A stretch of 54,145 nt of DNA, the filler included, from Streblomastix strix (Eukaryota): the NCBI GenBank assembly GCA_008636045.1. It is 3 parts of 3 records of this genome, joined end to end, with 100 filler letters (N's around TTAATTAATTAA, not from the genome) between each part and the next. Parts side by side here need not be neighbours in the genome. Positions count along the whole stretch, not along the records: positions 1 to 17,995 come from SNRW01000652.1; 2 more parts are not named here. One strand, 5' to 3'. Below, piece after piece: positions 1,761 through 39,299 of this stretch. The stretch's first letter is position 1, and every line of letters starts with the position of its first letter. The notes under the pieces are model-generated. The model had not been told where the DNA came from and did no database searches. It saw only the letters and a program-made list of their open reading frames with translations. A program made the translations under genes and the position numbers.

Positions 1761-4700
1761 ATGCAACTTCTGGTTGATAAATTGTTTGCTTCCTCATTAG
1801 ACCTTACGAGTGGGAGAGAATCGCCTTTCAAAGTATATAAAAACTCTAAGTAGATTTCTGGAGGCCTTAAGTATATTTATTTTTAAATTTTATTTTATTG
1901 ATTGATATATTAATATTTTTAATACAATTATATAAATAATATAATAAATAGAATTGTGGGCGTGAATTAGTGTTCATTATCTGAAATCGAGGCGTCCAGC
2001 AACTTGGGGACAATATTAAGCTATAAAGTTTTAATTATCATTATATTTTATTAATTTATCATTATATTTAACAAAAAATATACTTTTATATATTAATTTA
2101 GAGGAAATAATTTGGTTCGATCATTTCCTACGAAAAAAGTATAGTCATTGATTTAAATGGAGACGAACAAGTGATAAACACGTTATTGAAAGATAAACTG
2201 CAATAACAAGTCACAACAACTATTAAAATCCATAATGTTATCTTTATGGGCTGAAAAGATGGAGTAGTAGAGATGTGGAATATAGAAGATATAAATAAAG
2301 AAGGAAACCAGAAAAAGCTTTAATATAAATTAGTACATGAGGTAAGTTTAACTTATTAATTTTATTATTTATTTATTAACTATGAATTAATAATATAATT
2401 TTCACCAGTTTAAAGATGTTAATGACAGAAGCTCAGTTTTATCTCTAGAATCTATTCTCCCATTTCCAAGTGTTATATCTGTATAAATTAGTGGATTATG
2501 CAGAATATGGTATTATATTACTATATTAATACTTCTATATATTTGAGTATATATTAATTATTATCACAATCATTATACAGGACTCCAAATATGAATGTTG
2601 TAAGTGGAATTGATAATAGAGAATTAGATAATACATTAATTGAAGGAGATTCATTTGGAGTTGTATGCATATAATATTGTAATACAATATGATTCATTTA
2701 ATAATTATTTAACATTGCAGGTTTTATCTTCTGCATTGATCTCACTTCTCCCTCAACCTTCATTGACTGAAAAATAACAATAGTAAAATTCAATTCATTC
2801 ATCTTCATCATCTTCATCATCTATTACATATATGTTTGCTGTTGCATCATTTCATAGAATAAGAACTGTTCGTATGATTGGAGTGTAGAATATATTGAAG
2901 TTGGCTGAATCTGAGATTGAAGGAAATGAATGTGAAGATATTGGGTTATAATAATCTGGTAATGAAAATTCATAAAGTAAATCAAATTAAATATCAATTT
3001 ATAAATACATTCCATGTGTTCAATGGAAACCACGACACAATTCAGATTTTGAATGTATGTGATGTTTTTAGTTACTGATAAGTATTAATATTTATTATTG
3101 GATGGATATTTTATTATTGTTTTATTTTGTTATGTAGATATTCTTTCTGTCAGTGTTGGGAAGCGAGTGACATTTGTTGATGAAATGTTGAAACAACTTC
3201 CTCCAACAATTTGTAAGGTTTACAATTTAACAAATTATTCTATTTTTAAATAATTTTTTAATTTCTTTCTTTTTTGCTTTGATACATTTAAGAGTGGATT
3301 TAATCTGGAAAATGTTGCTTTTACTCACAAATGGATTGATTATTCAACTCTTGCAATTATCGACTTGAAAAATTTTCTAACGTTTGACTTTATTTAATTA
3401 TTTCTAACATTTTTATATTACATTTATTTAATTATTTCTAACATTTTTATATTACATTTATTTAATTATTTCTAACATTTTTATATTACATTTATTTAAT
3501 CAGTTTATATCAATTTCCTTCGTGTACATCAATAAATTAGATTGAACTTCCTCAAATAAGATAATTAACACATTCTCCATTTGATTCTTTAATTTGGAAA
3601 GATAGAAATGAAATTGAATAGAATAAAGAATAGGATTAAATAAATATAAAGAAAGAATATTTATCTGAACAAGCTCTAAATTATATTAAATAAATTGAAT
3701 TCATTTAATGGTAACCTTACGTTTCAGTTTCACCAATTGAGAAAGAAGATTCATAATTATATTCTTATTTGGATAAATAGAATTCTTCTTCAATTGTTTC
3801 AAATTCTGATTCTTCTGAATTGATTCATCTTCCTTTTCTGTCATTTATATCATAAGAAGGATTATTATAAAGTATTTATATCATATAACTTATTTAATTT
3901 GAATATAAATACTTAATTTATTATTGTATATTTTATTTATTACAGAAGTTGGTATATAAAATTGGAAAGAGAGATTGAATGAAATTGCAGAAAAGAATAA
4001 TTTGATTGAATTTATGAATTTATCTCAGGATTATTATGATGGAAGGGGAATGTATGAAATAATGATGAATTATTATATAATTAAATAAATAAACTTATTT
4101 TGATTTGATTTATTTAAATTTAATTAATTTTATTATGAAATGTTTATTCAATATATATTTCAGTCTTCCTCCAACACTTTCACTTATTTTGAGAGATGAA
4201 AGAGAAAAGAAGATTAAATAATTTGTTTTTGAATCAGACAAAGGATTATTAATTAAATTAGTTGAAAATTAAATATAAATCACATCTCAATTATTGCCTT
4301 CATCTGAATCAAATATCACTTCAAACGATCTTAATATGAAGTAAAGTGAAGAAATAGTAAATTAAAAAGATTCAAGAAATGATATTGATATTTATTCATT
4401 TATTGATCTTACTCATTCTCTAATTAATTTTGCATTGAATATTGGATCTATTGATGAATATCTGAATTTTATACATTCAATTCTTTTAGATAGGATAAAT
4501 CAAGATAAGAAAATTAGAAAAGATATTTAAATGGAACTTGGAATGGAAATTGTTCATGGGAGAGTGAAGATTATTCCCATAAAAGTTTGATTATTATCCA
4601 TTTAATTTATCATTAATTATTTATATACATTATTTATTTTCAGGTACTAAATGAACTTGTAAATGTACTCATTAGTGAGAATGAATTTGTATTGGTAGAG

Positions 4701-7700
4701 ACTGTATTATTAATGCTGATCAAGAATGTCTCAAAAAGATATAGCGATCTTCGTGAATATAATAGTAAAGAAAATAATTCTGAAAATGAAAACAAGAATA
4801 AGAAATAAGATTCCGAAGAATTTAAGTTATAAATGGAAGATATATTTCAATTTTCTTTAGATTGCGCATTGGAGAATGGATTTGTTAGAACTATTCTTGC
4901 TTTACCTTCAATTGAATGGGGAGGATTTTGCTTCTAATAAATAATGAAAAATTAAAGCAAATAAAATCAAGATCAAAAAGAAAGCAAAATTGAAATTTAA
5001 TAAATGTGTGATAAGATAAAAGGAGGATTGATTACTATTCCAATATAAGGATTTAGATTTGAGAGGATTAAAGATCTGGAATTTGATAAGAATGAATTTG
5101 GATTTATTGAACATGAAGATGAAGTTGATGATATTTTATTAGAAAAAGAAAGAGTCAGAAACATTGAATCTGAGAATATTGTTATTTCAAGAGAGATTCC
5201 AATGAGTAATATTATTAGAGAGAGAAACATTGAATATGTTTTATTCTCTCCAGATCATCTGGTGAATGGATTAAAATTGATTTGGTTGAAATAAGATAGA
5301 AGAAAAAGAAAAGAAGAAGATGAATAAAAATAAGAAGACAATGAATTAAATAATAAATTTAATAAGCCTAGTTCTGAAGAAATCATTTTAAGTGTTCTTT
5401 ATATAACACTTGGATTAAATTTTCCATATCCACATACAAACACACAACTTTTTAATTTAAAAGATAAAAGATAAGCATTTAAACCCTTAATTGATTGGAT
5501 ATTTGAATAATCTAATTCTCTTTTATAATCTTTATTAAACTGGGATTATTAAATGACTCTGGAATCTGTTATTAAACCATCTTTGTTGATTGCTGCTGAA
5601 TTTGAGAGAGAAAATGACAATCCATCATCAGATCGAATATCTGAATATAATAAATCTGATTAAACCGAATAAAATTATAATAATAGTTCAGATGAGATGG
5701 AAAGATCAAGATTACTATAGACAACACCATTATCAACTTATTCATCATAAATATTCCATTCTCCTTAGTCAATATAAATTACACCCCATTCACAAACATA
5801 ATCACTTCATTCTATTGACTCAAATTCAACTCCATTTAAAATATCATTATAAAATCAACTCAGTAATTCTCCAAATTAATCTCCTATTATATTATCTTAA
5901 TAATTGAATTAATAATAGTAATAATAAGTCCCATTACCTCCTCAACCAATTTATCAAGTAATCCCATAAACAAATATGAATAAATAGAACTTAAAATAAA
6001 GACCTGTAATTTTAGCTCCTCCACAAATGAGCAAAATCGTTGGAAATAAAAACACACTCACTTAAACATCATCATTATCTACTTCTTCATCTTAACCACC
6101 AACTACACTTCAATAGCCAATGAATAATACAACTGCAGAATAATAAGTTAAAGAAAAGGATGAATTAAATCGAAAATCATTATTAATATAGAAGTTCCAA
6201 GATACAAATGTTATACTGATTAAATAGATTCATGATTTAGTTGAATTCTAATCATAAACACTTCCTTCAACATCACTTTTCTTTATCAAATAACTTTAAT
6301 CATCTAATAATATGCCACAATATCAATATCAACCATAATCATTACAATTCACATTCAATTCACTTTAATAAGGAAATTAATAAAATAAATAAGGTCAATT
6401 CCGTATTATGATTGAATCTGTACAATAATCAGCATTTGAAGATTATTTAGAAATTGATATTCCTCTTCCAAATTTAGATCTTAATGAAGATAATTAAAAG
6501 TAATCAAATAATTAAGGATCAAAAAACACTGTATAATAAATAAACAGTATTATTTCAGAAATACTTATCAAGAAATAATATTAAAGAGATTAAAAAAAGA
6601 AAAGGGAATTAAAGAAGAAAGAAATAGAAGAATAAGAGAAGAAGATTTTATAGAGACATTATTATGATGTTGATCTTCCTCGTGAATGGTTTGTCAAATA
6701 AATCAAAGACCAAACAAAGACGTAACAATTAACAACAGACATGAAACTAACATAATAATAAGATACTTAATAGTAATAATTTCAAGAACCATCTCCACAT
6801 TCTCATATATCAACTACTCCTCATTATCATCAGACTCAAATATCTCCTAATTCTCCATCTGTTTAATCGCCAATGAAGATTCAATAAGGAAAAGATAATA
6901 AAATAGGAAATGGAAATAATGAGAAATAATAAGATGGGGAAGATGATGATGATGAATTAAATGAAAAGGAAGAGAAAGATGATAATTTGGGGTTTGTTTC
7001 AGTTAAATAAATTATTCTGAAGATTTTGAATGAAGCTTAAATGATAAAAGGATTGTGGAATGTTCTATTTGATATACTAATGAAGGAGGACAAAGATAAA
7101 TATAAAGATATGAGATAAAATATAAATATAATTAGTTAATAGCAATAAGTACATCTAATTCACTACATAATTCCTTTTATTATATCATTTAATATTCATC
7201 TTCCTCCAAAAGCATTTATTCAATTCATTCTTTACTTCATTGAATATACCTCATAATAATCAATTGTTCCATTATTGAAGAAATAATAATGTAAACAAAT
7301 AATCATGTAATTATTATCATCATCCATACCAAAACTTATTTCTCTCATTGATGAATAAAAATAAAGAAAATAAAACGATGAAAATTCTTTCAGCTAGTTC
7401 TTCATATAATCTTCATCTTATGAAGGATCATTTTAATATCTTATTGATTATATAATAAAGAATGATAAAGATAAATAAAAAGAATCAAAAGATTAGAATT
7501 TAATAAAAGATATAAAACATAACAATAATCGATTATTCATTTCTCGATCTATTTTATCAGCATTGGGAATTGTTTGTCTGAAATCTTCTGGAACATTTCA
7601 GGAAATAGGAATCAAAATAGGAGAAATAATTAGTGACTTTGAACTGGTAATTAATGGTGCATTATTTTATTATTACATATATTCACATTAGTATTTATTA

Positions 7701-10700
7701 TCATTATAACTAATTCTAATAAATTTATATTCTTTTATTTATTTACTATTCAGGATTTCTTGAATATGGAGGAATAAGAGGATCTTTAGAATAGGGAAGA
7801 AAAAGAATGATGAAACATTTGAGTGAAAGAAACAGAAATGAAAAATAAGAAATTGGATAAGAAAGAATAAGAGAAAGAAGAAATAATAAATCAGAATTCA
7901 GAGGAGATGTTGATACTAATTTGAGTCTGTGTTTATTTGGATGCAACAATTGTTATAAAGAAGAAGATATAGGAAAAAATAATGAGAAAGAAATTTTAAA
8001 AGAAAATAAAATAAGCAGAGTTTTATAAGATGATTTTGAATACTATTTAATGATTGATTCTGATGATGATGAACATTTGTAGGAATTTTAAACAATATTT
8101 GATTTCCTTTTTAGATACATATCATCTTTTGGGGAAGGAATTGAACAAATTGTAGAAATGAAAGGAAATGAAGAAAGAATTATAATTGAAATGGAATAAT
8201 AAATTAATTTGTTGGAAGATGCCATTAAAAAGAAGCTAAAATAATTATCATAACTTAGTGTAAGTAAAACAGCTCTTCTTATTCTGAGTATAATAGATTA
8301 GAGTGGAATGATAATAGTAGATAGTGAAAGAAGGATAAAAAGAAGAAAGAGGATTATTATAAGAAGAGAAAAGAAACCAAATGTTGATAAGAATGAATAA
8401 TAGGATATTCCATCTCCACTGTTCACAAATACAAATGAAAGTGAATTTGAAATATTTTCATAATCTGAAGAAGAATCGTCAATATTGAACATAAATAGAT
8501 GTAAATAGATGTAACAATAATTATTTTAATTGCTTTATTAATCAGATGTAAAATAGAAAGAGAAATGGAAGGAGAGAATTCTTGCTCATTGTCTTGTATT
8601 ATTGATTACTGATGTTTCATGGAAAGTTAAGATATTGTTGGAAACCAAGAAATATGAAGATTCTAATGATGAAGGAGAAGAATATAAAGATTAGGATGAA
8701 GATAAATAAGAAAGAATCATTATTCTATGGGATAATGGAAGACATCATTCTCTATTTGAGAATCTCACATAATCTCCTTCTTAAATATTTTCTCAATCTT
8801 TGATATAAACAAACAAAAACATTGGAGACTATTTTGAACTGAGTGAAAAATCACTTGAAATTGTATTTGAATATTTGATTAAAGTTGGAGAAAGAGGAAT
8901 ATCAAATAAAACAGTGAATGAGAAAGAGTAGAATAAACTCATCAATGATGATGCATTCTTATTCTCACTTCTATAACAGCATTAAATACACACACAACTA
9001 AATTCACCTTTGAGATACTTAGGGATTGGATAGAAGCATTTTGGTGATCTGACTTCATTTCTATTTTGTGATGTTGTTGGAGATATTGATGGTGCAAAGA
9101 AATCTCTTATTTCTGCATTAGAGGTTAGTAAAATTATTAATTTTATTTATTTATCAAAAGAATAATAATTTTAATATTCTATTCAATATATATTTATATT
9201 TATATTTATATTTATATTCATATTCAGAGATGGATGAAAGAAACATCAGATCTAATATTGGATCTATCTAAATATATAGAAATGAATTCTTAGACTCATT
9301 TAATTCCATTTGATTCACTTCCATAATCAGTAAAAGATTAAATTAATTAATAATAGAATAATAATTAGAGTAAATTAAATGAAGAAGAAGAAGATTGGTT
9401 TGGAATTAGAAACAGAGCAGAAGTAATGTGGAAGTATCTTATAAATATATCACCAGGAATTAGGTATGAAGAGATTGGAAATAAAGAAGAAGAAATATAA
9501 GATTTGTTTAGTTTATTATCAGAATGGATGATTGATAATAATTACAAAGTTAAGAAATAAGATAATAATAATTATAAATAATAATAAATAAATAAATTCT
9601 TGAGTGAAGTCAGTATTACACGAAGAGTATATTATGCAGCATTGAGAATTCTTGAAGGAATTAAATTATGGGATCAAAGCAGTGGATAAATAATTTCTGA
9701 ATCTGGACAATCAATTGTTTCAGGATTTCCATTCAATCAATCTCTATAAATTGGATCTAGAGGTTACTAATTGTAAAAAAGATTTGAGTTAAGTTTGATA
9801 CCAACATGTTTGATTAGAGAATTTGATGTGCTTTATTTGCTTGAGGAATATTTAATTGTTATTGGAGAGTAATTTTCTTCATTGTAAAGTTTCCGATCAG
9901 GATCGCTTTTCAATTTGAGATCATAAACACAGTTGGAAAAATTAGGAGGATTTCAATATGGATAAATATAAAATAGAGATTAAATAATTTAGATTAAATT
10001 CAATTAATTAAATTCTGGTCTGACAGAAAAAGGAAATGAAATTGGGAAGAATTAGTCAATTGAAATTGGATCACCATACAAATCTGATACAAAGGGATCT
10101 AATATAGAAATTGAATGGGCAAAACTTATTGTATAAATAGCATCATCACATAATATCAGTAATACTGAAAGTGAATTAGGTTAAGAGATTATGAAAGAAC
10201 TTGAGAAGAAGATTATAGTGAATATCTTTGAGCGAATTGTTATGCTTAAAGTATCAGGATCTGAAGATAAAGAAAAGAATATTGAAATTTCTAATGGTAA
10301 AACAGGAGTATCACTTTCATAGCTGTTTATTCGTGTAGTTGAAGAAGGTAAAGGTAAATAAGGAGACATAAATTTAGTATTGACTACAATGCTAGATCTA
10401 TTATAAGAAGATGGGGAATTCCTTAAGTCAGCTCATGGTGTTGGAGAGAATGCAAATGCAGAGTTTGTGGATAGACTTCTCTGGGAAGGAAGAAGAGGAA
10501 GATTATTTGAGTTTGGAAACAGAAGAATGAAGATGAATGGGAATTAAAATTAGAGATGTTGTGTTTGTGGGATAAAAATAGAAAGAATTCAGAATAAAGT
10601 GAATATAAATGATCTGGATGTGAATAATGAATCTGGGCGTATCATTTTATATGGATGTGGTCACATTGCTCATGAATAATGTGTATGTAATAACAAAGGG

Positions 10701-10925
10701 CAGAAGAAAATGTGGCGCGAGTAAGAGTGCAAATTGTGTAATGAGATAAACAGATCGAGAGATATTGGAATTGCCCAAAAGTTTGAAAATAATGATGATG
10801 ATGAATTACCTATTATAGAGCCATGGGAAGCTCCACAAGCTGGAATATAGTAAGAAGGAAGATCTGGTCGATTGGTGGTAGAGGATGCTAAAACCGTACA
10901 ACTTCGCATATCCATCTTTCGTTGA
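1761..10925 (+). CDS. VPS8: Vps8-like CORVET tethering subunit (N-terminal WD40-like region, helical solenoid, C-terminal RING-H2), multi-exon
   Basis: Code-6 reading with several GT-AG introns from MQLLVDKLFASS to ...VQLRISIFR-TGA. WD-like LWAEKDGVVEMWNI. Vps8-like segments LGMEIVHGRVKIIPIKVLNELV...VETVLLML and VLYITLGLNFPYP. C-terminal CCVC...CGHIAHEQC...CKLC at about 10557-10741. Long Q/N/E-rich insertions. Exon boundaries approximate. Confidence 0.65.
3389..3500 (+). repeat. 34-bp tandem repeat, about 3.3 copies, forming most of an intron
   Basis: TTTATTTAATTATTTCTAACATTTTTATATTACA at 3389, 3423 and 3457 plus a partial copy, within a GT(3382)...AG(3503) intron. Confidence 0.9.
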
Positions 10926-11466
10926 GTAAAATGATGTAAATAATAAACCTAAAATAATATTATTAATTTAATTTAATTTTTTTGCACATTTATCATACTT
11001 TCATAATTATTATTGAATCCTCAAAAAAAATGAATGGATTTAAAATCCGCAATTGCTTGAACAGTCTGATGCTCATATTTAAAAAATCCTGCAAATTGAA
11101 TCATTGCAACAAACATTCGTTTATATTCAATTCAATTAATAACAAATTATCACAAATTAAAGCCAATGTTTAAAATTTTTTAGAAATTTGAACATATTGC
11201 ACACCCTACAATATATAACTCTAAGTAACCAATAAAATTTATTATTAAAAAATTGTAAAAGCAACATAATATATTTCATAAAACAAATTATTTAACCTTT
11301 GCTAATTTCAAAATTAATTTACAAAATTTTTTTAAAAAAATTTACTTTTTTATGTTATAAATCAATTTAAAATAATTCATTTTTTTATATTTATCCATTT
11401 TATTTTATATTAGATATTTTAAAACTCAGATATAGGAATTCATACAACAAATAGAATACATTAAAT

Positions 11467-12235
11467 ATGACATCCAAAAAAGAGCTTGAGAAATTAGAAT
11501 AAGAAGAATTTGCAAAATAAGAAAGATTGAAGGAGTACTTCGATTCATTTACGGATTATGTATGCTACAGTTATGCATTTATTCTACTTATATGTGATTT
11601 TTCATAAGTACCCAAAAGTTCCTGAAAGTGCAAATGTGAAGAAAACAGGTAATTTATATGTTCATATTTTAATAATTATTTTTTTGTTATATTTTAATTC
11701 ATATTGGAACTTTTATTCTTTAATTCATTCAGGAATTGAAGCCCAAAGACGAGCTGTAATATATGAAGTATTTGAGTACTTTGATACAGATCATTCAGGA
11801 TCTATGGAATTGGGTGAGATTAAATATGCAATGAGTACCCTGGGATACCCAACAAAGAGTGAAGAGATACAAGCAGTACTTGATGATAAAGGTATGCTTA
11901 TATATAATAATTATATGTTAATATATTATATTTGATGTGCAGGTGAGGATGGAAGTTTAGATTTTGACTAATTTACTGATTTCGTCCTGAGTAAAATGGC
12001 GCAAGTTTCATAAGAGGAGGATATTCTTAGATCATTTCGTCTGCTTGATTAAGACCGCAAGAATTTCATTGATGTTTAGGATCTAAAGAGAGCAGCTTCA
12101 CAGATTGAATATGATATGGGGTTTGATTAAGGAAATCTGAAGAAGATCATTGAAGCTGCTGATAAGGACAAAGATGGGCGTGTCTCCTTCGAGGAATTCA
12201 AACAGGCTTACCGAAAGACTCTTGCTTAAGGCTGA
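11467..12235 (+). CDS. Centrin/calmodulin-family EF-hand protein
   Basis: Four exons (introns 11560-11608, 11649-11732, 11892-11942). EF-hand loops FDTDHSGSMELGE, GEDGSLDFDQF, LDQDRKNFIDVQD and ADKDKDGRVSFEEF. The IKYAMSTLG segment is centrin-like. TGA stop. Confidence 0.85.
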
Positions 12236-12826
12236 TACAATATTAACTTAAAGTAAAATATATACATTGAGTATCAATAAAATAAAACTAAAAACATACA
12301 TTTGTACTTAAATGATGTAATTTAAATGAGATGCAATTAAATAAATTAACGAAAAATACAATGAATTAAAAACATAGATGAAATAATAACAAACAGTTGG
12401 TTTCAAAATCTGTTGCTAATTTTCACAGGTTTCAGTTATAATATTGGTTGGTTATAATATAATTTATTACAAGTTATTCCATTACTTATATTTCTTCATT
12501 GAAAACGCAATAAAAGCTAATTTTGAGCCTAGAAATAAAATTTTTTCTTTTAATATATTTTACGTAAACACGCACAGTTTAATCTTAGCATAAATATTGC
12601 ATATATACATACAATAATGTTTATATCACATTATTTCATCTAAATAATAGCTTTATTTATCTGATTCACTATATTTGTGCTTTATTATTTTTTTATTTAA
12701 AATACATATAATATCAGGACAAAGAAGATTTATTTTATTTTAAAATAAATATTAGTTTACTACAATTATTCTAATTCATTCTATTCTATCATTAATCTAT
12801 TATATCAATATTTAGAAGATTATAAG

Positions 12827-14460
12827 ATGGATCAAGTCAGAGATTTTTTCTTTCCACTTCTTTCAGGGATGGCAGCTGGTGTTTCTCCATGTGTTATTGC
12901 ACTATTCCCAATGTTAATATCAAAAGTTGAATAACTACGTGGAAAAGGCGGTAGTGCATTGATTTTACTAGTAGGTTTCCTGTTTTTTTTCGTGATTCTA
13001 TCGCTATTTGTATAAGAACTGCTTTAAAGTCAGTTTCAAACTGGGATTAGAATTTTGCTTGGATTAATTTTCTGCACCTTGGGTTTGCAGAGCTTATTAG
13101 GGAAGGTCAGTGCAAAAGAACTCCCACTTATTTCAAACCAATTTCTAATGGGAGGAGTATATGCTATACTTGTGAGCTACAATCCATGCACTCTTCCTTA
13201 TTTAACTGTAATTGTATCAAGTTATGCTGGAGCAACACTTGCATTAAAAATGACAATCTTTGGAATTGGTCTTTCAATACCAGCTATTGTCATTGCTATA
13301 TTTGGAAATGCATTACTATAATATATACAACAAAAAATATCAAATGTATTTCATTGGATAAACAAAGCAATGGCTGTTGTGAATATTGGAGCAGGTGCAT
13401 ATTTAGTTGTTAAAATCCATAAACTGTCTATTTATGATGTAGTTATTGGAGATTGTGGATTATTTATATCATTTTAGATGATATTTAGAGTTTGAAATTT
13501 ATTTTGATACAACTTTATTTATTGTATTCAAATTATTATTTTTCTAATTTTATAGATTTATTTTGATATTAAAAAAGCTTAAGTTTTATTCACAAAGAAG
13601 AAAAAAGATGAAAATAAAGAGAAAAAAGAAAAGGACAAAGAAGATAAAAAAGAAAAAGAAAAAGAAGAGAAAAAAGAAAAAGAATTAGAACTAGAAATAT
13701 ATAAGAAAAATCAAAGAACGGCAAAGATTATAATATCATTAGTAATATTATATATAATATTATATGCAGCTGGATTTGCCATTGGATATTTTTCTATTCA
13801 GAAGAAATTTGATTTGTTTTTAAGTAATGATGAGAAAGAAATTTTGGTATTATTTTCTTTATTTAATATTTATACATGTATTATTTATTATTTATTTATA
13901 CAATCAATTATATTTCATTATCTTCTATTATTCAGGCAATTTCATAGAAGAGGATTGAAGATAATAAAGAAGATTAGATTGAAGAATCAGATGAAGATGT
14001 TAATATAAAAGATATAAAAGATATAAAACCATAAAGAATAGAAAAATAAGAATAAAAATAATAATAAGAATAAAAAGAATATAAAGAAGAAGAGGAAGAA
14101 GAAGAAATTCCATTAGAAAGAGGAGAAGATGAAAGTAGTGAAAAAGAATTGGATGAAGAAATCAAAGTTAATAAAAACAAACAAATCAAATCAAATGAAA
14201 CTGATAATAAAGATAAGGATAATAATATTACTGATAAAAAGCCAACTTAATAACCTATTAAGATTGACTGTCAAGTAACTGGAGTGTGTTATGAGTGTAT
14301 ATTAACTAGTTGGGGATTACTCATTCTTCTATTCATTGGATCTGCAGCAACTCTGGCTGCTGCTTGGTGGGAAGAGAAGGAAGATTTTCGCGGTATAGTT
14401 GAAGAGGTATGTGCTGTTCCTAAGTTTAGAAAAGGCAAGAAGAAGAACAAGGCAAAATGA
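12827..14460 (+). CDS. CcdA/DsbD-beta family transmembrane thiol-disulfide electron transporter with a C-terminal extension
   Basis: GMAAGVSPCVIALFP (Cys at 12890) and LVSYNPCTLPYL (Cys at 13187), followed by FGIGLSIP, in a roughly 6-TM core. Introns 13490-13555 and 13848-13935. Extra TM helices, charged loops, DCQVTGVCYEC motif, ends KKKNKAK-TGA. An upstream exon is possible. Confidence 0.8.
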
Positions 14461-18095: not shown

Positions 18096-18941
18096 TCATG
18101 GGAAATAGATATTGTATTTTCAATGAATCCTGAGTTAGTTAGAATTAATTAAATTTATTTATTCTGTATTAACATCAATACTAAATATCTTGTTATATAT
18201 CCATTACATAGTAAATCATAAGGGGATATTGAAAAAACATTGTAAAATTTGGTTTGAAATAAGCATGTTACACATATCAGAGGTGATGGTGAAAAAGGAT
18301 TTGCCAGCAATTAACTTATGTAATTTTATAACAAGAATGATATTAAGACTTATTTTGTGAATGGCTCTCAAGAATTAACGAATCATAATCGTGTTGCTGA
18401 TTCTGTAATAAGAACAATAAGAGATGCTTTTGGATAAGATGACAGATCGTTTTCTAATCCCAAGTTAATGTAACAAATGGTTGATCTTTACAACGATACT
18501 CCTCATGGTGCATTTGATAATTAATTTACACCTAAGTAAGTGAATACTTAATAAGAGCTTGAAGCTTATTTCATAAGGAAGAATGATAAAAAATTACGAG
18601 ATGTAAGATAAGAATAATATGAAGATGGACTAACTAAATATAAACCTGGAAATATTTTAATGATTCATGTTGATTACTTACGTATAATGCATCGTTATAT
18701 GAAGTAAAGAAGAAATTTCAATGAATTAGCTAAGTTTATTAAATATGATGGTGGTAATGTAGAGTGCTTATTATTAAACCCATTTTCTGATTTAGATAAG
18801 ATAAGTGTACCAATATATTATACAAAGTACATCTGTGAAAATGAATAATAATTAAATTAACCTTAATTAATAAAATTTAATTAATAATTTTTTTAATTGA
18901 AAACTTTTATAAAAATATTTTATTTTTCAACAAAAAAATGA
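18096..18941 (+). pseudogene. Retroviral-type (rve) integrase, 5' truncated, one internal TGA
   Basis: SWEIDIVF...YLFCININTKYL...IRGDGEKGF...NRVADSVIRTIR...YNDTPH...FTP. Internal TGA at 18255. Confidence 0.85.
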
Positions 18942-19210
18942 GTTAAGTTTATATGAATATTCATGATGGAAGATTATGCAAATATTCAACAAAGGAAGAA
19001 GCAATTAAAGTTGCAAAATAGCAAAGGAAATAAAGATTAATTAGATTATAAACATAAAATAGATAATTTATTAACAGTGTCTCAGATTCTTAATTATTTC
19101 TCATTAAGAGATTATAAAGTATTATTATTTCTGATTCTCTTGAAGTAGATAGAATACATGAAATTATAAATAAGTATGAATAATAAGAATAATAATACGA
19201 AAGTATTTGA
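18938..19210 (+). CDS. Small basic hypothetical protein, conserved in element 2
   Basis: MSQVYMNIHDGNYAKYSTKEEAIKVAKQQRK matches KQFQTEDQAKNIARQQRK in the ORF at 45871. Confidence 0.6.
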
Positions 19211-19247
19211 AAAAATATATGAATTAATGTAAAAAATATAAGAAATT

Positions 19248-20321
19248 TCATTCTTTCTTATGAATTTTCGTAGATTTAGTTAATTTCTTATGTAAATCAG
19301 ACTATGCCTTAGCTGATTGTATTAGTTATGAAGTTGGAATAAACTTTTTCTTAAGCTTTGAATCTTTCTAACCTACTGGAACTACTGGTTTCTTCATATA
19401 AGGTTGAGGATTACCAAATTATTCATATTTATAACCAGCTTTATATGTTTCAAATGGAGATCTACCATAGATATCATTAATTGGTGGTCTACCCCAATCT
19501 AAAGCTCCAATATCATAGACAGTATTAAGATAATTTGCAGCAAGCATTTCTGATTATATTTATTATAGTTATTCATCCGTTAATTTTTCTTAAGCTAATG
19601 ATTATTCTCCAGCTATTTCTGAAACGTAAGCTGAATCTGGATGAAGTTCATCATTATCAGTAGGATATTCTTTGTTTAATTCCTTAGTTACCTATTCTTT
19701 TTACTTTTATGATCCATAATTCAACAATTCATTCAATTATTCTTCTTGTGTAACTACTGGACCTTTAGATCTTAAATCCATCTATGGTTAATTTAATCTT
19801 GCATTAATATTTCCCTCATAACTCTAAGCATTCTCAGTATATTTCTATTCTATTAACCTACCTTGTTCATTTAATCTGAAGGTAGTTTCATAAAGATCTG
19901 ATAATAAGCTTTTTGGAAAAAGCTCAGTATAAACTTACCGTCTATCTTTATGATCAGTTATTGCAGATATTCCAAATCTAGCTTCCTTTTCTGATATTTT
20001 TGTAATTCAACGCATAACTTCTTCTTCAATTGGTTTTAATTATGAAGCAGTCATTCCTATCTTAAATCTCAGGCCACTATTTAAGATTATATCTGGTATT
20101 TCAGCAACTAGTTCAGGTCTATATCTTTAATATCTAAGTGTTCTAAATTTACCAACAGCTTTCATCTTAGATTTATAATCACCACCAGCTTGTTGTTTCT
20201 TAAACTTCTCCATACTACTATTAATGAGTTCATCAAGACTAGTCAATGGAACTTTTGATAACTCTAATTCATATTCATTAGGTTTATATGTTTTTTTACC
20301 CTTCTTTCCTTTCTTAGACAT
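19248..20321 (-). pseudogene. Hypothetical viral protein with basic termini (possible core/DNA-binding protein), one internal TGA
   Basis: MSKKGKKGKKTYK...LDWGRPPINDIYGRSPFETYKAGY..., homologous to LNWGTAPVNQYYCKTPYATKRIGY near 46400 on the minus strand. Confidence 0.6.
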
Positions 20322-20339
20322 TTACTTACATTATTTTAA

Positions 20340-20450
20340 ATGTAAACAAAGTAAATCAAATTTCTAATGATTTGTGATATATTAATAACAATTTCATCTT
20401 GTTTATTACTTGTTGTATAGATAATTAAAATTTAGAGTAAAAATAATTGA
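20340..20450 (+). CDS. 36-aa single-transmembrane peptide
   Basis: MQTKQIKFLMICDILITISSCLLLVVQIIKIQSKNN*, with a syntenic homologue at 47286-47378. Confidence 0.55.
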
Positions 20451-20489
20451 AGAAAAACATAGGTATTTTATATATTTTTAAACCAAAAG

Positions 20490-20708
20490 CACATTACAAT
20501 AGAATAATTTCTTGTATATTCTAATTTTTTTAGTTCATTATTATGTGTTGCAACTAAATCAGATCCTGAAATTGAACTTATATTTCTCTTACGGTAGTAT
20601 AATAAACATCTTAAGATGGAATAACTCAAATAAATCATTGGTATTGCTTTAGATACTGGTGAATAAGAATCATTCTTAAAATTAGTATATTACCTTAATG
20701 AAAAATGA
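20490..20708 (+). CDS. Small conserved hypothetical protein (start uncertain)
   Basis: ...SLLCVATKSDPEIELIFLLRQYNKHLKMEQLKQII... aligns with 47430-47645. Confidence 0.55.
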
Positions 20709-20742
20709 ATACAACAGTATATTTATTTTTGAAATTAAAGTA

Positions 20743-22225
20743 ATGTCATCCTTTAGCTTATAAATACTGTGTTCTGACTCAGATTCTGATTATGTAACTT
20801 GAAAGACATCAATTCCCAGTGATTCTAAGTCATTTTAAGTAAATTTTCTTAATAACATGCCAATAAATCTTACTTATTACTTGAATCAAGATTACTTAGA
20901 GATATCTCATGGTATGTAATCATCTATAAATAAGAAATACTACGAATAATATAATATTCGTAATGGAACATACAAATTAACAGAGATAACTGAGATTCCA
21001 ACTATAAAAATAAACTTCAATACTACTATTAACAAAAGATACACTAACGAATAGAATTATCAAGGATATTAATATGCTCTCTTAACCATGGTTATAACTT
21101 CAGCATAGTTAGATGAGTTCGTAGATTCTTAAGAAAAGTACTTTCAGATGATAGACACTAGTAATCATGGAGTAATTTGCATTAATAATGCTTCTAATGA
21201 ACATACTTAGAAGTTATCAGATGGAAAATACTCATTGAATATTAATGATAGTTAAGATATAGTATCTTCTGCAATAAATTATATTATTCTAAGATTAGAT
21301 TCATTTCTATATAAGTACTTTACATAATCTAATGGTTGTTACTACAGATTAATAGGTATCAATCGTTTATATTGCCCTACGATAAATAACTTCATAACAA
21401 CTATTGAACCATTCTTAACAACAACATCAGTTCATTCAGTTAAAATACGATACTTACATGGAAAATAATTCCATATCAATGATGTTAATATAATAGAAGA
21501 AGTAATAGCTTTACCAAAGAATATTTAATAACCAACTATGTAATCAATCACTAACAGTATCAGTACGTATCCAGTAAGAATAATATCTTCAATTCGTTGT
21601 TAGAATTCTAATGATTGGAATATTATATATACTGCTGTTAACAGACTTTAATATTATAAATAATATGTTCTTGATGTATTAACTCAGTTTTCAACTATGA
21701 ATTATTAAGCTAGTCCTTAGATTCTATGGTAACCAAGGAGATTAACTCTATCACCTAATTTATTCAAATAATTAACTGGTGCATTTGATTTATATGATGG
21801 ATTATCTGAGAATGCTGCAAATCCTATCGTTAATAATGCTTCATCAGTGAAATTTATTGACTTAGAAACTTGGTATTATAAAAACTCAGTATGATTCTTA
21901 TAGTTAAATTGCTGATACTCCAATTCTATGTTCATTGATTGGAATTTTCCATTAATATCCTCAGATGCTTATAATTTCTGTCTCTAACGAGTTATAAGGT
22001 ATCACATTATAAGGAAAAGATGGTTAAGGATTCTTAAATGTATGCTACAAGTAAAATCTTATTGGTGCACCACTATTATTGGGTTAAAATATGTTATCTT
22101 AAGAATGTACGATAGGCTAATACAAAAATGTTATATTCATTTTATATGACAATTATGGAAGAAAAATAATTAATTAATATATTGATATGTATAATAATTT
22201 ATTATTAGAAATTCAATCTTAGTGA
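20743..22225 (+). pseudogene. Putative minor capsid (penton-like) protein
   Basis: About 490 codons, beta-rich, C-terminal FILYDNYGRKI...LLLEI typical of Polinton-type pentons. Clear paralogue at 47666-49162. Internal TGAs and frameshift. Function is inferred. Confidence 0.55.
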
Positions 22226-22393
22226 CACTCTTTGAATTACATAATACCATTGATTTTCCTTATTTTTACTTAACTTAATATATTTAATATTGGATCATTA
22301 ATAATTATTAATTCTGCAAATGTAATACTATTATTAATCATGTTTATAATTGCAAAAATAATTATAACAAGCATATTTTATTTCTCCACCTTT

Positions 22394-24352
22394 TCATCCA
22401 CTTCTAAGCATAGTCCCACCAACTTCACCTATGATTTCAAAGTTTAAAACCAATGGTTCAGGTGCATCATCAAAAGTAAATCTAATGATAGCATCGTATA
22501 GATAGTGCATCTAAAGAGTTATTTGAGCATTTCTTGGAGTAGGATAAGCTCTTGTTGCAATAAATTGTAAAAGATTATTCTAATCATCTTAGATTCCAGG
22601 AGCTGCATCAAGTATCTATGAATTATCTATTATTCCTTGAGTTATACTCCCTTATAAAGTAACTTGAATATACGTTCTTGCACCCATTTTGTTGAACTAT
22701 ATTATTTCATAAATGAATCATAAGTTGCCATCTTCCATGCAAGCATAAATTTATGATGATAATGTATTTTTACTGCTTTATTTCCTATGTACAACGTTGT
22801 ATTATAGAATATATTTTCTCTATCAATATAACTAGTGCCCATTTGTCCATAGTAATTGCCATTTGATTCATTTATAGTTTGATTTTGAAAATTCAATGAA
22901 TGATATAAATCTGTAGGTGCTGAAACTAAGTCTTACTCAACAAAAAATTTGAATATCTATCCTGTAACCATTGGATTCATCGATACATATTCTTACTAAA
23001 TAATATGTCGCTGATCAATTTCCAAATTAAACTTCTAAAATAACACAGGAAACATCCAAATTGGATATTAATTCAATGCAAATGTAATAAACATAGCTTT
23101 TATGTTTGAACACGACATCGTACTCTACATTGAACCACCATTTTCTGAAAATCCACGAAATGGGAAGTTACTTGATTATGTACGTATAATTTACATTAAG
23201 AAATTCAATATTTTTTGAGTTCTTATCATATCAATGATTGCTTATTCATTTTCCATGTCAAAACTCACATTATTAATATCTAACTTAATGAATCTTGCTT
23301 CCTTAATTTAATTTATTGAATTTGTAGGTCTTCTTTCATCACGAGCTTTTCCTTCCATATTAACTAATCTTACAGAAAATCCTAAATATGCAGCTACAGC
23401 TGCATTAATTAAGAAAATTAGATCTGATTTCTCTGTTGGAATCATTTAATAAGCAAGATGTTAGTTAGTTATTGTATCAGTCATATTCAAATATACAACC
23501 TTCAGATATTATAAGAAATCTTAAGTCTAAGTATAAATATAACGATGCATAGTTACGTTTTAACACTGGAAATGAATTGAATATTGGATTTAACTAATTT
23601 AAGTCAAGTACTCCAACAATAATTATTGGATATGTAATTAATTAATTAAAGCTTCCAGCAGCAAAAGCTTCAACAGGTATATCTATGAAAACTCCACAAT
23701 GTCTTCTGCCACTAACAACTGTTTCTAAAGGTGATACACTTACAGAATTTTTTGTACATGAATCAGATAATGAATTTGCAGCTATCACAGCTTATTCTCT
23801 TGCATATCTTGATGTCTCCCATAGTTTTGTATAATCTTTACAGATTGCTATTTATTAGAATGGTCCACAAGCTATTGAATAACCAAGCCAGAACTTAACA
23901 TATTCATTCGGATTGATTGGCATTTCTTTATCTTTAGCACCAACTGCCATAGTGCGAACCCAATCTGCTTATAGATCCTCTAATCCATTGAAATTTACTC
24001 TTGCTCTTGCTATTGCCTTTGAATTTAGAGCTGTAGATAATCCTGGAATTAAATTAAGTTATAGTGCCAATCTCTCTCCAGGAATTGTTATTAACCAGCA
24101 GATTTAACATGATTATGCCATAGAGCTAGTTTCTTAACCTCTTGCACCTAATGGAGCTAATGTATATCTTTATCCATCACTTGTAAGTTAATTAATAGGT
24201 TAATCAAAGAATTTTAATCTACTTATATTAAAAATCTATGGATGAATAGAAGCCTATCTCAATACTTCTGACATTGCTGAATAAATAGATATATAATCAG
24301 AATGTTAAACACGAGCTAATTTTTAAATATAATCACTTGCTGAGAAACTCAT
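22394..24352 (-). pseudogene. Putative major capsid protein (double jelly-roll inferred)
   Basis: About 650 codons: MSFSASDYIQKLARV...KFWLGYSIACGPFQQIAIC...LDLNQLNPIFNSFPV...KFMLAWKMAT...HYLYDAIIRFTFDDAPEPLVLNFEIIGEVGG. Several frameshifts. Size and context fit an MCP; the fold is not verified. Confidence 0.6.
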
Positions 24353-24407
24353 TAAGTTTGATTTACTTAGAATTTAAAACAGTAAGTAAGTTTTATTATT
24401 CAATCAT

Positions 24408-24647
24408 ATACATTAACTAGAAAATCAAATTAAATTCAATAAGGGATTCTTCTCTGGTTTGAAAAATTTCGAAAGTAAGATATTAGGTGGTATTAAGAAA
24501 GTTGCAGACTGGGATACGCCTACTTTACATAAAGTAATGGGTACTTTAAGTGGACCATTCAGTATATTACATCCAGGAGCTGGATAGATCATGGGAACTA
24601 TAGGTAATATTGCTTGTGGATTAGATAGGCATTTAAATAAGAGATGA
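24408..24647 (+). CDS. Gly-rich amphipathic peptide resembling the adenovirus protein VI lytic helix (start codon unclear)
   Basis: KGFFSGLKNFESKILGGIKKVADWDTPTLHKVMGTLSGPFSILHPGAGQIMGTIGNIACGLDRHLNKR*. Confidence 0.55.
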
Positions 24648-24699
24648 TAATAAAATACTTATAAAAATAATCAGAATAATTATTTTTCTAAAAATAAAA

Positions 24700-24933
24700 T
24701 CATCAATAGAAGATTTATATAAATTTGCTTAAACACTAGGAAAAGAAAATAATGCCTCTGAATATGAAGTGTTAAAAATATTTGAAGCATTGATTGATGA
24801 TAAGGAATTAGATGATTTGTAATAATAGTTCTATGATTAGAAAAAATAGGAATGTAATGAAAGATATGGTCTGATATCAGAAAAAACTTGTGAAGTCATT
24901 GGTTATCTTCACTACTTAGATACGTTAAGATGA
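24700..24933 (+). CDS. Small acidic hypothetical protein
   Basis: SIEDLYKFAQTLGKEN...IGYLHYLDTLR* is open in code 6; start uncertain. Confidence 0.4.
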
Positions 24934-24939
24934 GTTAAT

Positions 24940-25361
24940 TGATAATATGCACAAAATAGTTGATTATCTACGTCTGTAACAAATTAATTATATATCTGTT
25001 TTTCATCATCATCAGTTGCTTCAGATATAATATATTTCTTTATTTATTATGGTTATTAATTCAAATCCATCTTCTTCTTGATTTGATTATATTCTTTTGC
25101 ATAATATTTATTATTCTCACCATATATTTTAATTTTATAGTCTTCATCATCAATAAATTATTTAATTGACTATAATTTACTCTATTAAGTTGTGAATTAC
25201 TTATTAATTCTTATTAATTCTTTAAGTAATATATGTTATGAATCTTATTTACTTTTCATCAGCTGATTCTATAGTGCTTCCATCATTGTTTTAATTAAAT
25301 CATCGTCTTCATAGTTTGTTTTTGGTAGTTCAGCGAATAATTATTTAAGCGGTTTGGACAT
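24940..25361 (-). pseudogene. Hypothetical coiled-coil protein, probably frameshifted
   Basis: MSKPLKQLFAELPKTNYEDDDLIKTMMEALQNQL... Confidence 0.4.
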
Positions 25362-25400
25362 TTAATATCAAAAATAAATTATTAACATTTCTTAATATTT

Positions 25401-27634
25401 TCATGGAGGAACAGCCCCTAATGTTACTGGTTTAGCTCTCCAACATATTTTAGGTCCATCACTATAGAATCCTCCATTTGTATCTACGCTATTTACACCC
25501 CATAGATTGGACTTTCTGTTGAATAATTAACTAAACCATTACTAGCACCGTTAATTGCACCGATTCCAGCAATTACTTATCCATTAAAAGATAATGTGTT
25601 TCCATCTGTTGAGATCATTAATCCTTAATTATCCTGACCAAGTTGAATATTAACTCCAATTCTTAATTCTCCAATAGGTGTATTTACTATTTTCCAGTAA
25701 TCTGTTAATGTTCCATCAGTTGAATTTGGATTACATCCTAGATAAATTCCACTATAATTAATAGCTTCAGAACGAGATATTCTTATTCCCTCATTATAAC
25801 TATTACTAGATGGTTTTATTTAAAATATATTACTAAATGTCTTTCTACCTGTAATGGTTTAATCAGTTCTAACATCAACTAATTCATTACTATTAAATTT
25901 AAATTATGTACAATCACTATTAATACTTAATCCAACACTATGGTCAGCTTATCGTAGAGACGATGGGTTAATTGTTAGTGCCCTATCACTTATTTTACTT
26001 ATCTCCCATTAACCTAATTGTGTAGTATATATAGCTGTAGTTGAACATCCGAAATATAATGATGAGCATTCAGTGTTATAGTTTCCAATTCTAAAACTAT
26101 TATTAAACGTAGTATAAGTTTGGCCTGTCGGATTAACTTATAGCATATTATTTATTATACCACCATTAGCTAAATTATAGGTAATTGGTATTTATATACC
26201 ATTTGATATTCCTGAGACTACATCTTATGTTAATATCTCTGTGATTCTATCAGTATAATAAGTGCTTTAATCAGATGCAACTATCGTAACGTTACCAGCA
26301 GATTCTAATCTAACATATGCTGAATAAATAGCTGATGTATCAGAGCCTGAATGATTATGAAATAATTAATTAACACCTTAATCTATATCATAGTATGAAT
26401 TAACTTTAGTTGCAGCTGTAAATATTCCATATATAGTATTGATTCCATTAACAGTATAATAAGGTTCTAATCTAATGGTTTGAACAGAATTGTAAGATGA
26501 ATATAATTTAAATTCAATGAATGGGCTACCTGCACTAGCACCAGCAGGAAATACACATAATCTAATCCATCCACCTGCACTAGCGTTATATGATCTAGAA
26601 AATTTGCAATCTATTGTAGTTGTATCACCATTAGCACACAATACTTCTGTAGCTGTTCCTCCTGATTTAATAAATTTAGTTGCTATACCATTTCCATCGT
26701 AAGTTAGTTACTGAGGATGAAGATGATCATGTCTTGAATAATATGCTGATGTACAAATATTTCCGACTCCATTAACTACAGGTACAATTGAAGCATTTGT
26801 TTAGACATTAATAGAATGAGAATGATCATTTCTAGAGTATGAATCAACTGTACCATAAGATCCATCTGCTGAATCACTATTATAAATAGTAATTACAGTC
26901 TAAATTGGATGTTAATGATCAGATCTAGCATAAGAACTAGCTTGTCCAACAGTATTTACAGATGTATCTTTACTTGGTAAAACATCAGAAACTTATAGTG
27001 GATGCTTATGATCTCCTCTACAGTACTCATTTGAAGTTCCTGCAGCATCAGTTCCACTCCAAACTAATGGAATATCATCACTTGCAAGAGTTACTTAATC
27101 AGGAACCATATCTCCACTGTTATATCAATTCTAATCATACATCCATACTGTACCACTTTCAGCTGAAAAAGCAAAATCACCATTGGCAGAATTAGGTCAA
27201 TTTTATATATCTGTGTTCAATAAATAGTAACCTCTAAAATGTGTTTATTTGTTAAGTTCATCATTAATATCATTAATTTATTATTATAATCCACCAATAT
27301 CTTATGTTGCTGTTCCAAACGTCTATTATAATACGTTAACTTCTTATTCTAATGTAGTTATTTTACGTAAGAAATCAATATTTAATAAATTTTTATTCTT
27401 CAATGTCATAACACCATTGGTTTCCAGTTTCATGGCATAATTCAATGGATTATCTATTGGTGCATATATTTATGAGTTATAATCATCAACTATTGATTAA
27501 TATTCACTTCCTGAAAATTAACTACTGGAACTTGATGAATTTCTTGAATATTGTATCAAATATTGGAAATCAAATTATATTTATGAACGAATAACTTAGA
27601 TCTATTATTAACTCAAGGTTTTAGCTAATATCAT
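25401..27634 (-). pseudogene. Phage-like tail-fibre / receptor-binding protein
   Basis: N-terminal coiled coil; four YxRxDHxH repeats (YCRGDHKHP, YARSDHQHP, YSRNDHSHS, YSRHDHLHP; about 26715-27030); FIKSGGTATEVLCANG; DQTITGRKTF; two GxRI...I/LYxGC...W beta modules. Two internal TGAs and a late frameshift. Confidence 0.75.
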
Positions 27635-27689
27635 ATTTGAATAAAGAAAAATAAATATAATCATATAACTTATGATTCGTTCTTTAGTA

Positions 27690-28262
27690 TCATCTTTAAT
27701 ATTTTGATTTATAATTTCCATTACGCAGCTTATCAATGTATATAAAAACAGGTTTATCGTTAATATCTTGAGCATAAACATATTAATATTAATATTTATT
27801 CTTTTTAGTGAACATCTCTAACTTTCTATATTTTAGTCCATTATGGAAATAAACGTTAAAATCTTAGTCAAAACTGTAACCTTCAAGAATTGATTCATTA
27901 TATTAATTTAATATTTAAGATCCTGCAGGTAATTCATCTATATATTCATAGGTTGATCGATTTGTGTTATTCTCTTTTGGAGTTACCCATCGTAAATTTT
28001 CTATTCGATTATCGGCTCGATTTTGGTTTTTGTGATCGATATCTGGTAAATTTAAAGGATTAGGAATGAATTGTATAGTTATAACTCGATGAAATTAAAA
28101 TTTTACACAATTTAGAGAAACATATTAATAACCGTACTTCTTATCAATTGAAACAATTGGAATAATGCCATATGAGATTTTTCGTATTGTATATGGTGAT
28201 CCAGTTAATATTTCATAATCATTATCAAGTTCTAAAACTTACCATTAATTAATTTCTTCCAT
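27690..28262 (-). CDS. HNH homing-type endonuclease (HNH_3/NUMOD4-like)
   Basis: Intact 190-aa code-6 ORF containing HRVITIQFIPNPLNLPDIDHKNQNRADNRIENLRWVTPKEN. Confidence 0.9.
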
Positions 28263-28300
28263 TTTTGGAAGGAAAAATAATTATTTATTAAATAAAGTTT

Positions 28301-29356
28301 TCATTATTTGATTATCAGAAACTGGCTAGACCATTTACTAAGTATTATGAATTCATATTTATAATGAGTTCCATACAGTAACATAAACTCATCAAAGTTA
28401 AGATTCTATAAAAAGTTCTCTTCGTATGCTTGTTTTAAATCACTGTCAGATAGACTAACTCCTAAATGCATGACATGAGATAAAATTCTTGCAGTTTTAA
28501 ATAAGTAACTTGGACGTTATGCAACAAAGAAAACAGTATTTTTATTATGTTTACTGTCGGAAATTAAATGAGTTATTGTCTTCGCTAATCCTGAAGAGAA
28601 TCTATAAATATCAGCATTACTTCCTACGTCATCAAATATTAACAATGAATTTAACAATAAACTATGAAATAATATAGGAATCTTCGTTACTTTTAATTCA
28701 GCATCACCATCATCTTATTATATTTCTATTTATCTCTCTAATTATACGTTCTGAATCATAGCAGGAATAGTAAATCTCATTATCATTGTTGGAACACTAT
28801 ATTTAGTTATGATATTAATACATTCTTAACGAAATATCTAAGCAATTCTTCTTGCATAATCCTTTGGTTTCTCTAATTATTATTCTGGTGTTGCAGAAGC
28901 AATTCGTGTTGGATTCTATTTTATTTGATTCATTATTAATATTCTTTCTTTCATTCTCTGTATGTAATCAGATTTGTACGATAAATTTACTTCAATTAAC
29001 TTCCAATATGCATATATTTCTTTAACTTAATATTTAATTTCTTCAAATTATGGAAGGAAATACATAGCTTCTTCATAAGTTATTTTAGTTAAGACTATAT
29101 TCTTAGAGTTTAGATTCAATGCCATAGTCTCATCAGCACCAAAATTAGAGAAATATAAAATGAATGGATAGATTTTTTATTTGTAGATTACTATCAGTTT
29201 ACTTAATAAAGTTGTTTTACCTTAACCAACTGCACCAACTATATAATGATTCCCAATGTTTAAGAATAATGAATTCCTTGTCAATGGCTTTGTTTTATAT
29301 TCATCTAACATAGAAATATCGGTAAATGTCACAGATTATATCTCAGATAATGTCAT
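28301..29356 (-). CDS. A32/FtsK-HerA-like genome packaging ATPase
   Basis: Intact 351-aa ORF: Walker A GAVGQGKT, Walker B LLIFDD, then SKHNKNTVFFVAQ (RH...Q motif). Confidence 0.85.
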
Positions 29357-29397
29357 TATATTTATTATTAAACAAATGTAAGTTAAATATTATAATA

Positions 29398-29790
29398 ATG
29401 ATAATAAATTCTATATTTTATGGAGTAAACTTCATTGTATCTATAATTTCTCTATCAAATCCAAAGTAATTACCAGATATTACTGCTTTAATTAAATAAT
29501 TATGGAGTTATTTTGATGTGATTCTAGTTCCTATTAATATAATTATATATTTATTTCTGTTTGTTTATCGTAGGAGAAAGAAAATTAAGATATAATCATA
29601 AAAAGAATCTGAAGAGAAACCAAATATTAATTAAGTAAGTTATTTTCATTGGTCTAAGTATTCAAATGAATAGATAGAGGAATTCATTAAAGAAGCCATA
29701 GAAAAATAATACGAAGAACTTGCAAAGATGTGGAGATATATTGTATTTAAAGTTATTGAATCTTAAAACTTATAACACTGTCTCAAGTTG
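29398..29790 (+). CDS. Putative membrane protein (end uncertain)
   Basis: Hydrophobic N-terminus, TM segment VILVPINIIIYLFLFVY followed by RRRKK. Confidence 0.45.
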
Positions 29791-39150: not shown

Positions 39151-39224
39151 CTTCATGGAACAGATCATTTATTTTTTTACCTTAGATTTTACCAATTTAT
39201 TATCCTTTATTACCATATTTATAT
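39149..39224 (-). repeat. Right inverted terminal repeat of DIRS element
   Basis: Reverse complement of 36549-36624 with 5 mismatches. Confidence 0.9.
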
Positions 39225-39299
39225 TGTACATATTTGAACACATCGCGAATAAAAGAGTGAAGTTCTCATTCATGTCTATCGCCTGGGCTTTGCCGAGGC

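Follow-up and report, generated by a model that had tools for sequence, protein, structure and literature searches.

Plants and algae have a plastid CcdA, derived from cyanobacteria, that serves the thylakoids. CcdA, as described in PMC3322552, consists of the membrane domain only and works with a separate exported thioredoxin; the same article places the alpha and gamma domains of DsbD in the periplasm, around an eight-helix beta domain, and DsbD is described as having two extra helices relative to CcdA (bioRxiv 10.1101/2022.09.07.506916). ERGU-1/TMEM161B and LMF1 have been proposed as ER reductant carriers of animals (PMC13713018, PMC12781119). A 2025 review treats the ER-membrane protein carrying reducing equivalents as unknown (PMC12781119), and a 2026 paper reports that BLAST searches for a DsbD/ScsB homologue broadly conserved among eukaryotes came up empty (PMC13713018). 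In the full-text literature, exclusive of subscription papers, we found no earlier report of CcdA in oxymonads or of DsbD in Monocercomonoides, and both terms are absent from the searchable parts of 11 supplements of PMC10703272, 4 of PMC8767320 and 3 of PMC9746703.

Here we describe a gene in a stretch of Streblomastix strix DNA of 54,145 nucleotides (the whole stretch analysed, referred to as the window). We hold, with a little more belief than doubt, that this spliced gene, one of a single orthogroup of Preaxostyla, encodes a nine-helix protein with a CcdA core that carries electrons from cytosolic thioredoxin to the ER lumen. Its features, some of them placed with contigs of two runs (X2 and X3), are as follows.

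12405..12428, + strand: 5′ non-coding first exon, 24 nt; loose 5′ end of one X2 contig
12429..12815, + strand: 5′ UTR intron, 387 nt, GT..AG; deduced from the same X2 contig, ends read from the sequence
12827..13489, + strand: first coding exon; six-helix CcdA core (residues 1–199) plus helix 7
12884..12895, + strand: SPCV motif, C22 in helix 1; first catalytic-type cysteine
13181..13192, + strand: NPCT motif, C121 in helix 4; second catalytic-type cysteine
13490..13555, + strand: coding intron 1, 66 nt, GT..AG, phase 0; from sequence, frame, database model and orthologue colinearity
13556..13846, + strand: second coding exon; loop rich in lysine, on the cytosolic side by prediction, and helix 8 at 13724–13792
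13847..13935, + strand: coding intron 2, 89 nt, GT..AG, phase 0; skipped in an X3 contig
13936..14460, + strand: third coding exon; linker (acidic, of low complexity), then the cysteine cluster, helix 9 and the tail up to the TGA stop
14269..14298, + strand: CX5CXXC cluster (C430, C436, C439); start of helix 9, predicted luminal
14377..14430, + strand: conserved tail motif KEDFxGxVxxVCxVPKFR carrying C477; cytosolic by prediction
14443..14457, + strand: KxKxx end (K-N-K-A-K); candidate COPI/ER retrieval signal

The three joined exons encode 492 amino acids, with 17 in-frame TAA/TAG codons read through (table 6), and 492/492 positions are equal to S. strix KAA6399935.1 (EZS28_004540; P0003), annotated 'hypothetical protein'. 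An earlier note on this DNA, made from the sequence, had named code-6 usage, two PC motifs, a CxxxxxCxxC motif and a K-N-K-A-K end and had allowed for an oxymonad host, and all of these are borne out: the database protein is that of S. strix, the motifs SPCV and NPCT supply C22 and C121, and the letters of the cluster at 14269–14298 read CQVTGVCYEC. The coding parts of its gene model also stand; missing from it were the 5′ exon and UTR intron (12405–12815) and the conserved C477. Its two spliced introns fared differently. Intron 2 is absent from an X3 contig, the shorter flank of which is 94 letters. No X2 or X3 contig spans the junction of intron 1, which is based on the open frame, the database model and an orthologue from Monocercomonoides that is colinear over the junction.

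Three runs contain the stretch, with RNA recorded for none of them. An X2 contig spans 12814–13470, that is, exon 1 up to 13470, and the 22 letters at its 5′ end equal 12405–12426 with 2 mismatches, at a single place in the window (0 matches in 100 shuffles). The continuation from there at 12814 points to the 387-nt UTR intron. The ends of the X2 and X3 contigs have the look of what we take to be adaptors and, together with the missing intron, this suggests that X2 and X3 are cDNA. Among the 28 rows listed of 85, the exonic substitutions are 25 synonymous and 3 Ile>Leu; being mostly synonymous, they indicate that the frame is under purifying selection. In the T run at 12983 the X2 contig is one base short; this would put the frame out, and an amplification slip is the probable cause. 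A second S. strix record, EZS28_038063 (P0001), is 97% identical, lacks the first 181 residues and lies on a 2.2-kb contig; it is probably an allele or strain variant.

Directly upstream, at ~11450–12232 (+), lies an intron-containing EF-hand gene (EF-hand_7, E 3e-16), centrin-like by eye, and 4458–10925 (+) is a long multi-exon gene with a RING finger at its end and a weak Vps8-RING match (E 0.009). Further along the window, a reverse transcriptase frame (RVT_1, E 1.4e-18) occupies 38047–39234 (+). The regions 50904–54145 (+) and 18258–29431 hold broken frames with a match to protein-primed type B DNA polymerase (PF03175, E 2e-8), together with a P-loop ATPase frame at 28304–29431 (−) and, by eye, integrase-, capsid- and fibre-like frames; we presume that these are probably decayed Polinton-like elements of the protist. 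Bacterial contamination was considered and rejected, given the introns, the table 6 code, the eukaryotic neighbours and the orthologues.

At E ≤ 1 the full protein has no DsbD match in Pfam or NCBIfam, PF02683 included. Standard models of the kind that the earlier note had proposed for checking the CcdA core miss it, and it is more sensitive comparisons that find CcdA. A phmmer search of PDB sequences with the core returned the CcdA 5VKV at E 9.3e-4 with both PC motifs aligned, and the Monocercomonoides orthologue returned it at E 9.1e-5 with the same motif alignment; for a two-sequence oxymonad profile, 5VKV was the sole match at E ≤ 10 among 177,635 PDB sequences (E 6.6e-7, residues 7–193). 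In the reverse comparison, with profiles of differing depth made from Pfam-selected proteins (CcdA/DsbD, 34 rows of 36 candidates; LysE, 11 rows, 2 of which had been picked by the oxymonad profile; DsbD_2, 24 rows), the S. strix and M. exilis cores scored 24.4 and 29.3 bits with CcdA, 14.3 and 6.2 with LysE, and 12.3 and 4.1 with DsbD_2, the maximum among shuffled controls (~300 per profile) being 8.2 bits. Of the candidate rows for the CcdA profile, one (L127) belongs to a genome not yet published (G006); no other line of evidence makes use of it. By hhalign the oxymonad core gave 97.7% with CcdA, 90.2% with LysE and 58.2% with DsbD_2. The alignment to CcdA covers 177 columns (E 1.3e-12); LysE (PF01810) also aligns to the core, at 90–95%, and DsbD_2 (PF13386) reaches residues 56–195 only, not the whole core.

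Residues G14, P21, C22, P28, G50, G109, C121, P124, G148 and P152 are invariant in 18/18 aligned rows. In alignment A7 the C121 column is Cys in 115/115 prokaryotic rows, and P21 and C22 match in 115/115, the SPCV-type motif having been the criterion by which these rows were selected. Prokaryotic relatives are only 16–26% identical. Residues 1–199 are, by sequence, a divergent CcdA/DsbD-beta core with both catalytic-type cysteines. The CcdA homology claimed in the earlier note is upheld by the profile match to 5VKV, by the aligned catalytic cysteines and by the CcdA profile scoring highest, and the closer affinity to LysE that it had allowed for is contradicted by the scores in both species.

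An AlphaFold model was made from a 118-row alignment, itself a CcdA alignment, which renders fold comparisons partly circular; a model with two-sequence input had a pLDDT of 37.8. In the former the pLDDT of the core is mostly 76–93, and that of the cluster region, 40–60, is too low to show contact with C22 or C121. Foldseek with this partly circular model ranked 5VKV first (E 7e-3, probability 1.00, TMt 0.57), and in VIA it came second, level with a generic helical hairpin (Z 8.1 and rmsd 5.1 for 201 residues), which gives the CcdA fold modest support. Residues 199–309 are modelled as a long helical hairpin.

The added transmembrane helices and cysteine cluster pointed out in the earlier note are kept in the M. 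exilis orthologue, MONOS_632 (482 amino acids, 42% identical), the extension being compared between these two species. The layout is the same in both: helix 7, a basic loop, helix 8, an acidic linker, CX5CXXC with equal spacing, helix 9, KEDFxGxVxxVCxVPKFR and KxKxx. Identity is 101/198 in the core, 10/33 in the cluster plus helix 9, and 13/20 in the tail motif (residues 464–483), which includes a fourth conserved cysteine, C477. The 64-residue C-terminal piece with the cluster region, considered as a possible DsbB/VKOR-type module (a four-helix bundle with CXXC and quinone site), has no match in Pfam or PDB, but is too short and too poorly modelled for this to tell against such a module. On residues 174–270 of the orthologue, a cytochrome b561 match (PF01292, 23 bits against a cut-off of 30) was read as generic helices.

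The nine helices were set by hand, S. strix helix 7 being moderately hydrophobic, and a miscount would flip the side of the cluster. On this count, Lys and Arg residues near the membrane number 4 on the non-cytosolic versus 13 on the cytosolic side in S. strix, and 5 versus 16 in M. exilis, so that the tail would be cytosolic, and the N-terminus and cluster would both face away from the cytosol. The C430–C439 cluster is predicted to lie on the luminal side, after helix 8, as the earlier note had proposed, with charge bias and helix count in agreement. Across helix 9 from the cluster lies C477, where one may guess at acylation or at a redox contact on the cytosolic side.

Set beside CcdA (Thermus thermophilus 5VKV; the Rhodobacter prototype), the protein shares the six-helix core, the PC-motif cysteines in helices 1 and 4, the conserved Gly and Pro columns and a non-cytosolic N-terminus (predicted here). 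It differs from CcdA in its three more helices, predicted luminal CX5CXXC, cytosolic tail, spliceosomal introns and plastid-free eukaryotic host; with ~290 further residues, three helices and four conserved cysteines, it does not match the strict CcdA class of a membrane domain only. In the order of its parts the protein is like the beta and gamma domains of DsbD/ScsB, with eight helices and, after them, a CXXC predicted to face outward, and the cluster sits where DsbD has its gamma-domain CXXC, without the thioredoxin fold. Unlike DsbD/ScsB, the protein has no alpha domain and has a ninth helix; helix 1 starts at residue 7 and there is no thioredoxin match in Pfam or PDB, so that this class is not matched either. 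Nor is the LysE class, given the lower profile score and the presence of the catalytic-type cysteine pair. The protein is a divergent member of the CcdA/DsbD superfamily outside the three classes described for it (CcdA, DsbD and ScsB). With plastid CcdA it has in common that it is a CcdA-family protein in a eukaryote, but its host is an oxymonad without a plastid. A proposed role in cytosol-to-ER electron transfer is shared with ERGU-1/TMEM161B and LMF1, which in the literature available to us are described as functional analogues or candidates and not as homologues of DsbD in sequence, whereas the oxymonad protein is, at the sequence level, a DsbD homologue.

We searched prokaryotic genome sets, whose phylum names are those of the loci serving as their centres, with the oxymonad profile at E ≤ 0.001. 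Matches occurred in 8/201 genomes of Thermoproteota, 8/151 of Actinomycetota, 2/151 of Pseudomonadota, 2/201 of Chloroflexota and 1/121 of Fibrobacterota. Without the Fibrobacterota one, the 20 genome matches comprise 11 DsbD_TM, 2 LysE and 7 without a Pfam family at E 1e-5; the last are all archaeal and have both cysteines. A thioredoxin gene adjoins each of the six best matches. A separate search for related loci returned none in prokaryote genomes, none in plasmids and one LysE gene in metagenomes. Among archaeal CcdA-like loci, L131–L136 and L138 are missed by Pfam at E 1e-5, and no proline precedes their second cysteine, L131–L136 having a thioredoxin gene adjacent; L252–L255 and L257 carry 160–190 extra hydrophobic residues after the core, without a CXXC there. 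No CXXC behind the core was seen among the 60 archaeal loci listed.

Within eukaryotes, the distribution was assessed by word-index searches and one orthogroup table covering metamonads. The table (PMC10703272, supplementary file 3) places MONOS_632 in orthogroup q2007877 with BLNAU_875, two Streblomastix numbers and PAPYR_729; the row was matched via MONOS_632, and the Blattamonas and Paratrimastix members are known by identifier only. Of the survey of other protists suggested in the earlier note, the extension was found in Monocercomonoides; for the other two genera the orthogroup shows membership of the gene. The orthogroup is empty in Trimastix and in 14/14 metamonads outside Preaxostyla (PMC10703272). 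Word-index searches of 5.8 billion sequences returned oxymonad records only, though they are insensitive, one having missed even the Monocercomonoides protein. The gene is present in Paratrimastix, which keeps a mitochondrion-related organelle, and is therefore not tied to the loss of mitochondria; its occurrence in both Paratrimastix and oxymonads makes it older than that loss. In trees of 63 and 46 rows, sampled from five phyla without Asgard archaea or plastid sequences, the oxymonad pair sits at the end of a long branch, and no sister to it is starred. Lateral acquisition, as the earlier note had it, accounts most simply for the narrow distribution, the gene having probably been taken from a prokaryote before the Paratrimastix/oxymonad split, but the trees point to no donor, and we lean only slightly, within the five phyla sampled, to archaea. 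Inheritance from the archaeal ancestor of eukaryotes, with loss elsewhere, would fit the top relatives being archaeal (35–42 bits versus ≤31 for bacteria, over five phyla) and the pair joining two archaeal fusions in both trees (SH-aLRT 88–89). That join is flagged as long branches meeting, in a sample lacking Asgard archaea, and with the empty orthogroup rows and the oxymonad-only search results we regard such inheritance as very improbable.

How might the protein work? By the chemistry of DsbD and CcdA, cytosolic thioredoxin would reduce the C22–C121 pair, the thioredoxin being kept reduced by the thioredoxin reductase encoded in these protists. Published annotations include thioredoxin reductase in 4/5 Preaxostyla (S. 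strix, M. exilis, B. nauphoetae and P. pyriformis) and PDIs in M. exilis (PMC10703272), in which thioredoxins are described as an expanded family (PMC6759080). The core would then switch access to the luminal side, for which an elevator model of the DsbD/CcdA type has been put forward (bioRxiv 10.1101/2022.09.07.506916), and the C22–C121 pair is predicted to reduce the CXXC of the fused CX5CXXC cluster. From there, at a guess, electrons may pass to PDI-family or peroxide/methionine-repair clients, and the cytosolic KxKxx end would hold the protein in the ER.

We take S. strix to be without a mitochondrion. M. exilis likewise has none, according to published abstracts. With no mitochondrion and no plastid, the protein would be in the endomembranes or at the cell surface, and the KxKxx end is the only reason for preferring the ER. 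PaPyr729 does not occur as a whole word in the searchable parts of the Paratrimastix spatial-proteomics supplements. A role in cytochrome c maturation, judged unlikely in the earlier note, was set aside, since Preaxostyla are without heme synthesis enzymes and only b5-type cytochromes are mentioned in the literature covered.

Three other functions were weighed against transfer to the ER lumen. The same chemistry could serve another membrane, with the Golgi, the food vacuole or the cell surface receiving the reductant, so that surface and ingested proteins would be repaired or reduced. The homology and topology evidence fits this equally, the prokaryotic relatives work at the cell membrane, and the lysine-rich C-terminal tails of both species weaken the KxKxx evidence, as the motif may be there by chance; but both species have Lys at −3 and −5 despite a 46-residue difference between their tails, and KxKxx-like ends occur in only 2/59 crude long-frame ends of the window, one of them this gene (a rough control). 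We consider this a doubtful but serious prospect. Electrons might instead flow in reverse, from luminal dithiols to the cytosol, in support of oxygen-free disulfide formation. DsbB and VKOR come to mind because the CXXC stands where a membrane helix, here helix 9, begins. Oxidoreductin, QSOX, sulfhydryl oxidase and VKOR are absent as terms from the searchable parts of 11 supplements of PMC10703272, whose annotations are incomplete, but a reduced thioredoxin pool opposes such flow, neither Pfam nor PDB offers a match to the C-terminal piece, and the characterised DsbD, CcdA and ScsB, as covered in PMC3322552, all pass electrons outward from the cytoplasmic thioredoxin system; reverse flow seems to us quite unlikely. 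We give similarly little credence to a LysE-superfamily carrier of metals or small solutes, with the cysteines as ligands or structural elements (a zinc or copper site) and no redox relay. The oxymonad profile does retrieve the LysE proteins L001, L139 and L140, the NP of the second motif (NPCT) is LysE-like and three close cysteines would suit a metal site, but CcdA outscores LysE and DsbD_2 in both species, both membrane cysteines lie in CcdA columns, and the three LysE matches have no PC motif.

If the preferred reading, transfer from cytosolic thioredoxin to the ER lumen, is right, the carrier of animals or yeast would not be identified thereby. Whether Preaxostyla are the first eukaryotes whose secretory pathway makes use of a genuine homologue of DsbD/CcdA, a self-contained conduit borrowed from prokaryotes, with a new luminal CX5CXXC module in place of the thioredoxin-like acceptor, for ER reduction or, less likely, for oxygen-free disulfide formation, is in our judgement evenly balanced. 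A CcdA homologue for which endomembranes and cell surface are the sole candidate sites would allow a direct, single-gene test of a DsbD-type relay there. For the amitochondriate oxymonads this would mean one more redox function, so far unannotated; the DsbD family would gain a new acceptor module.
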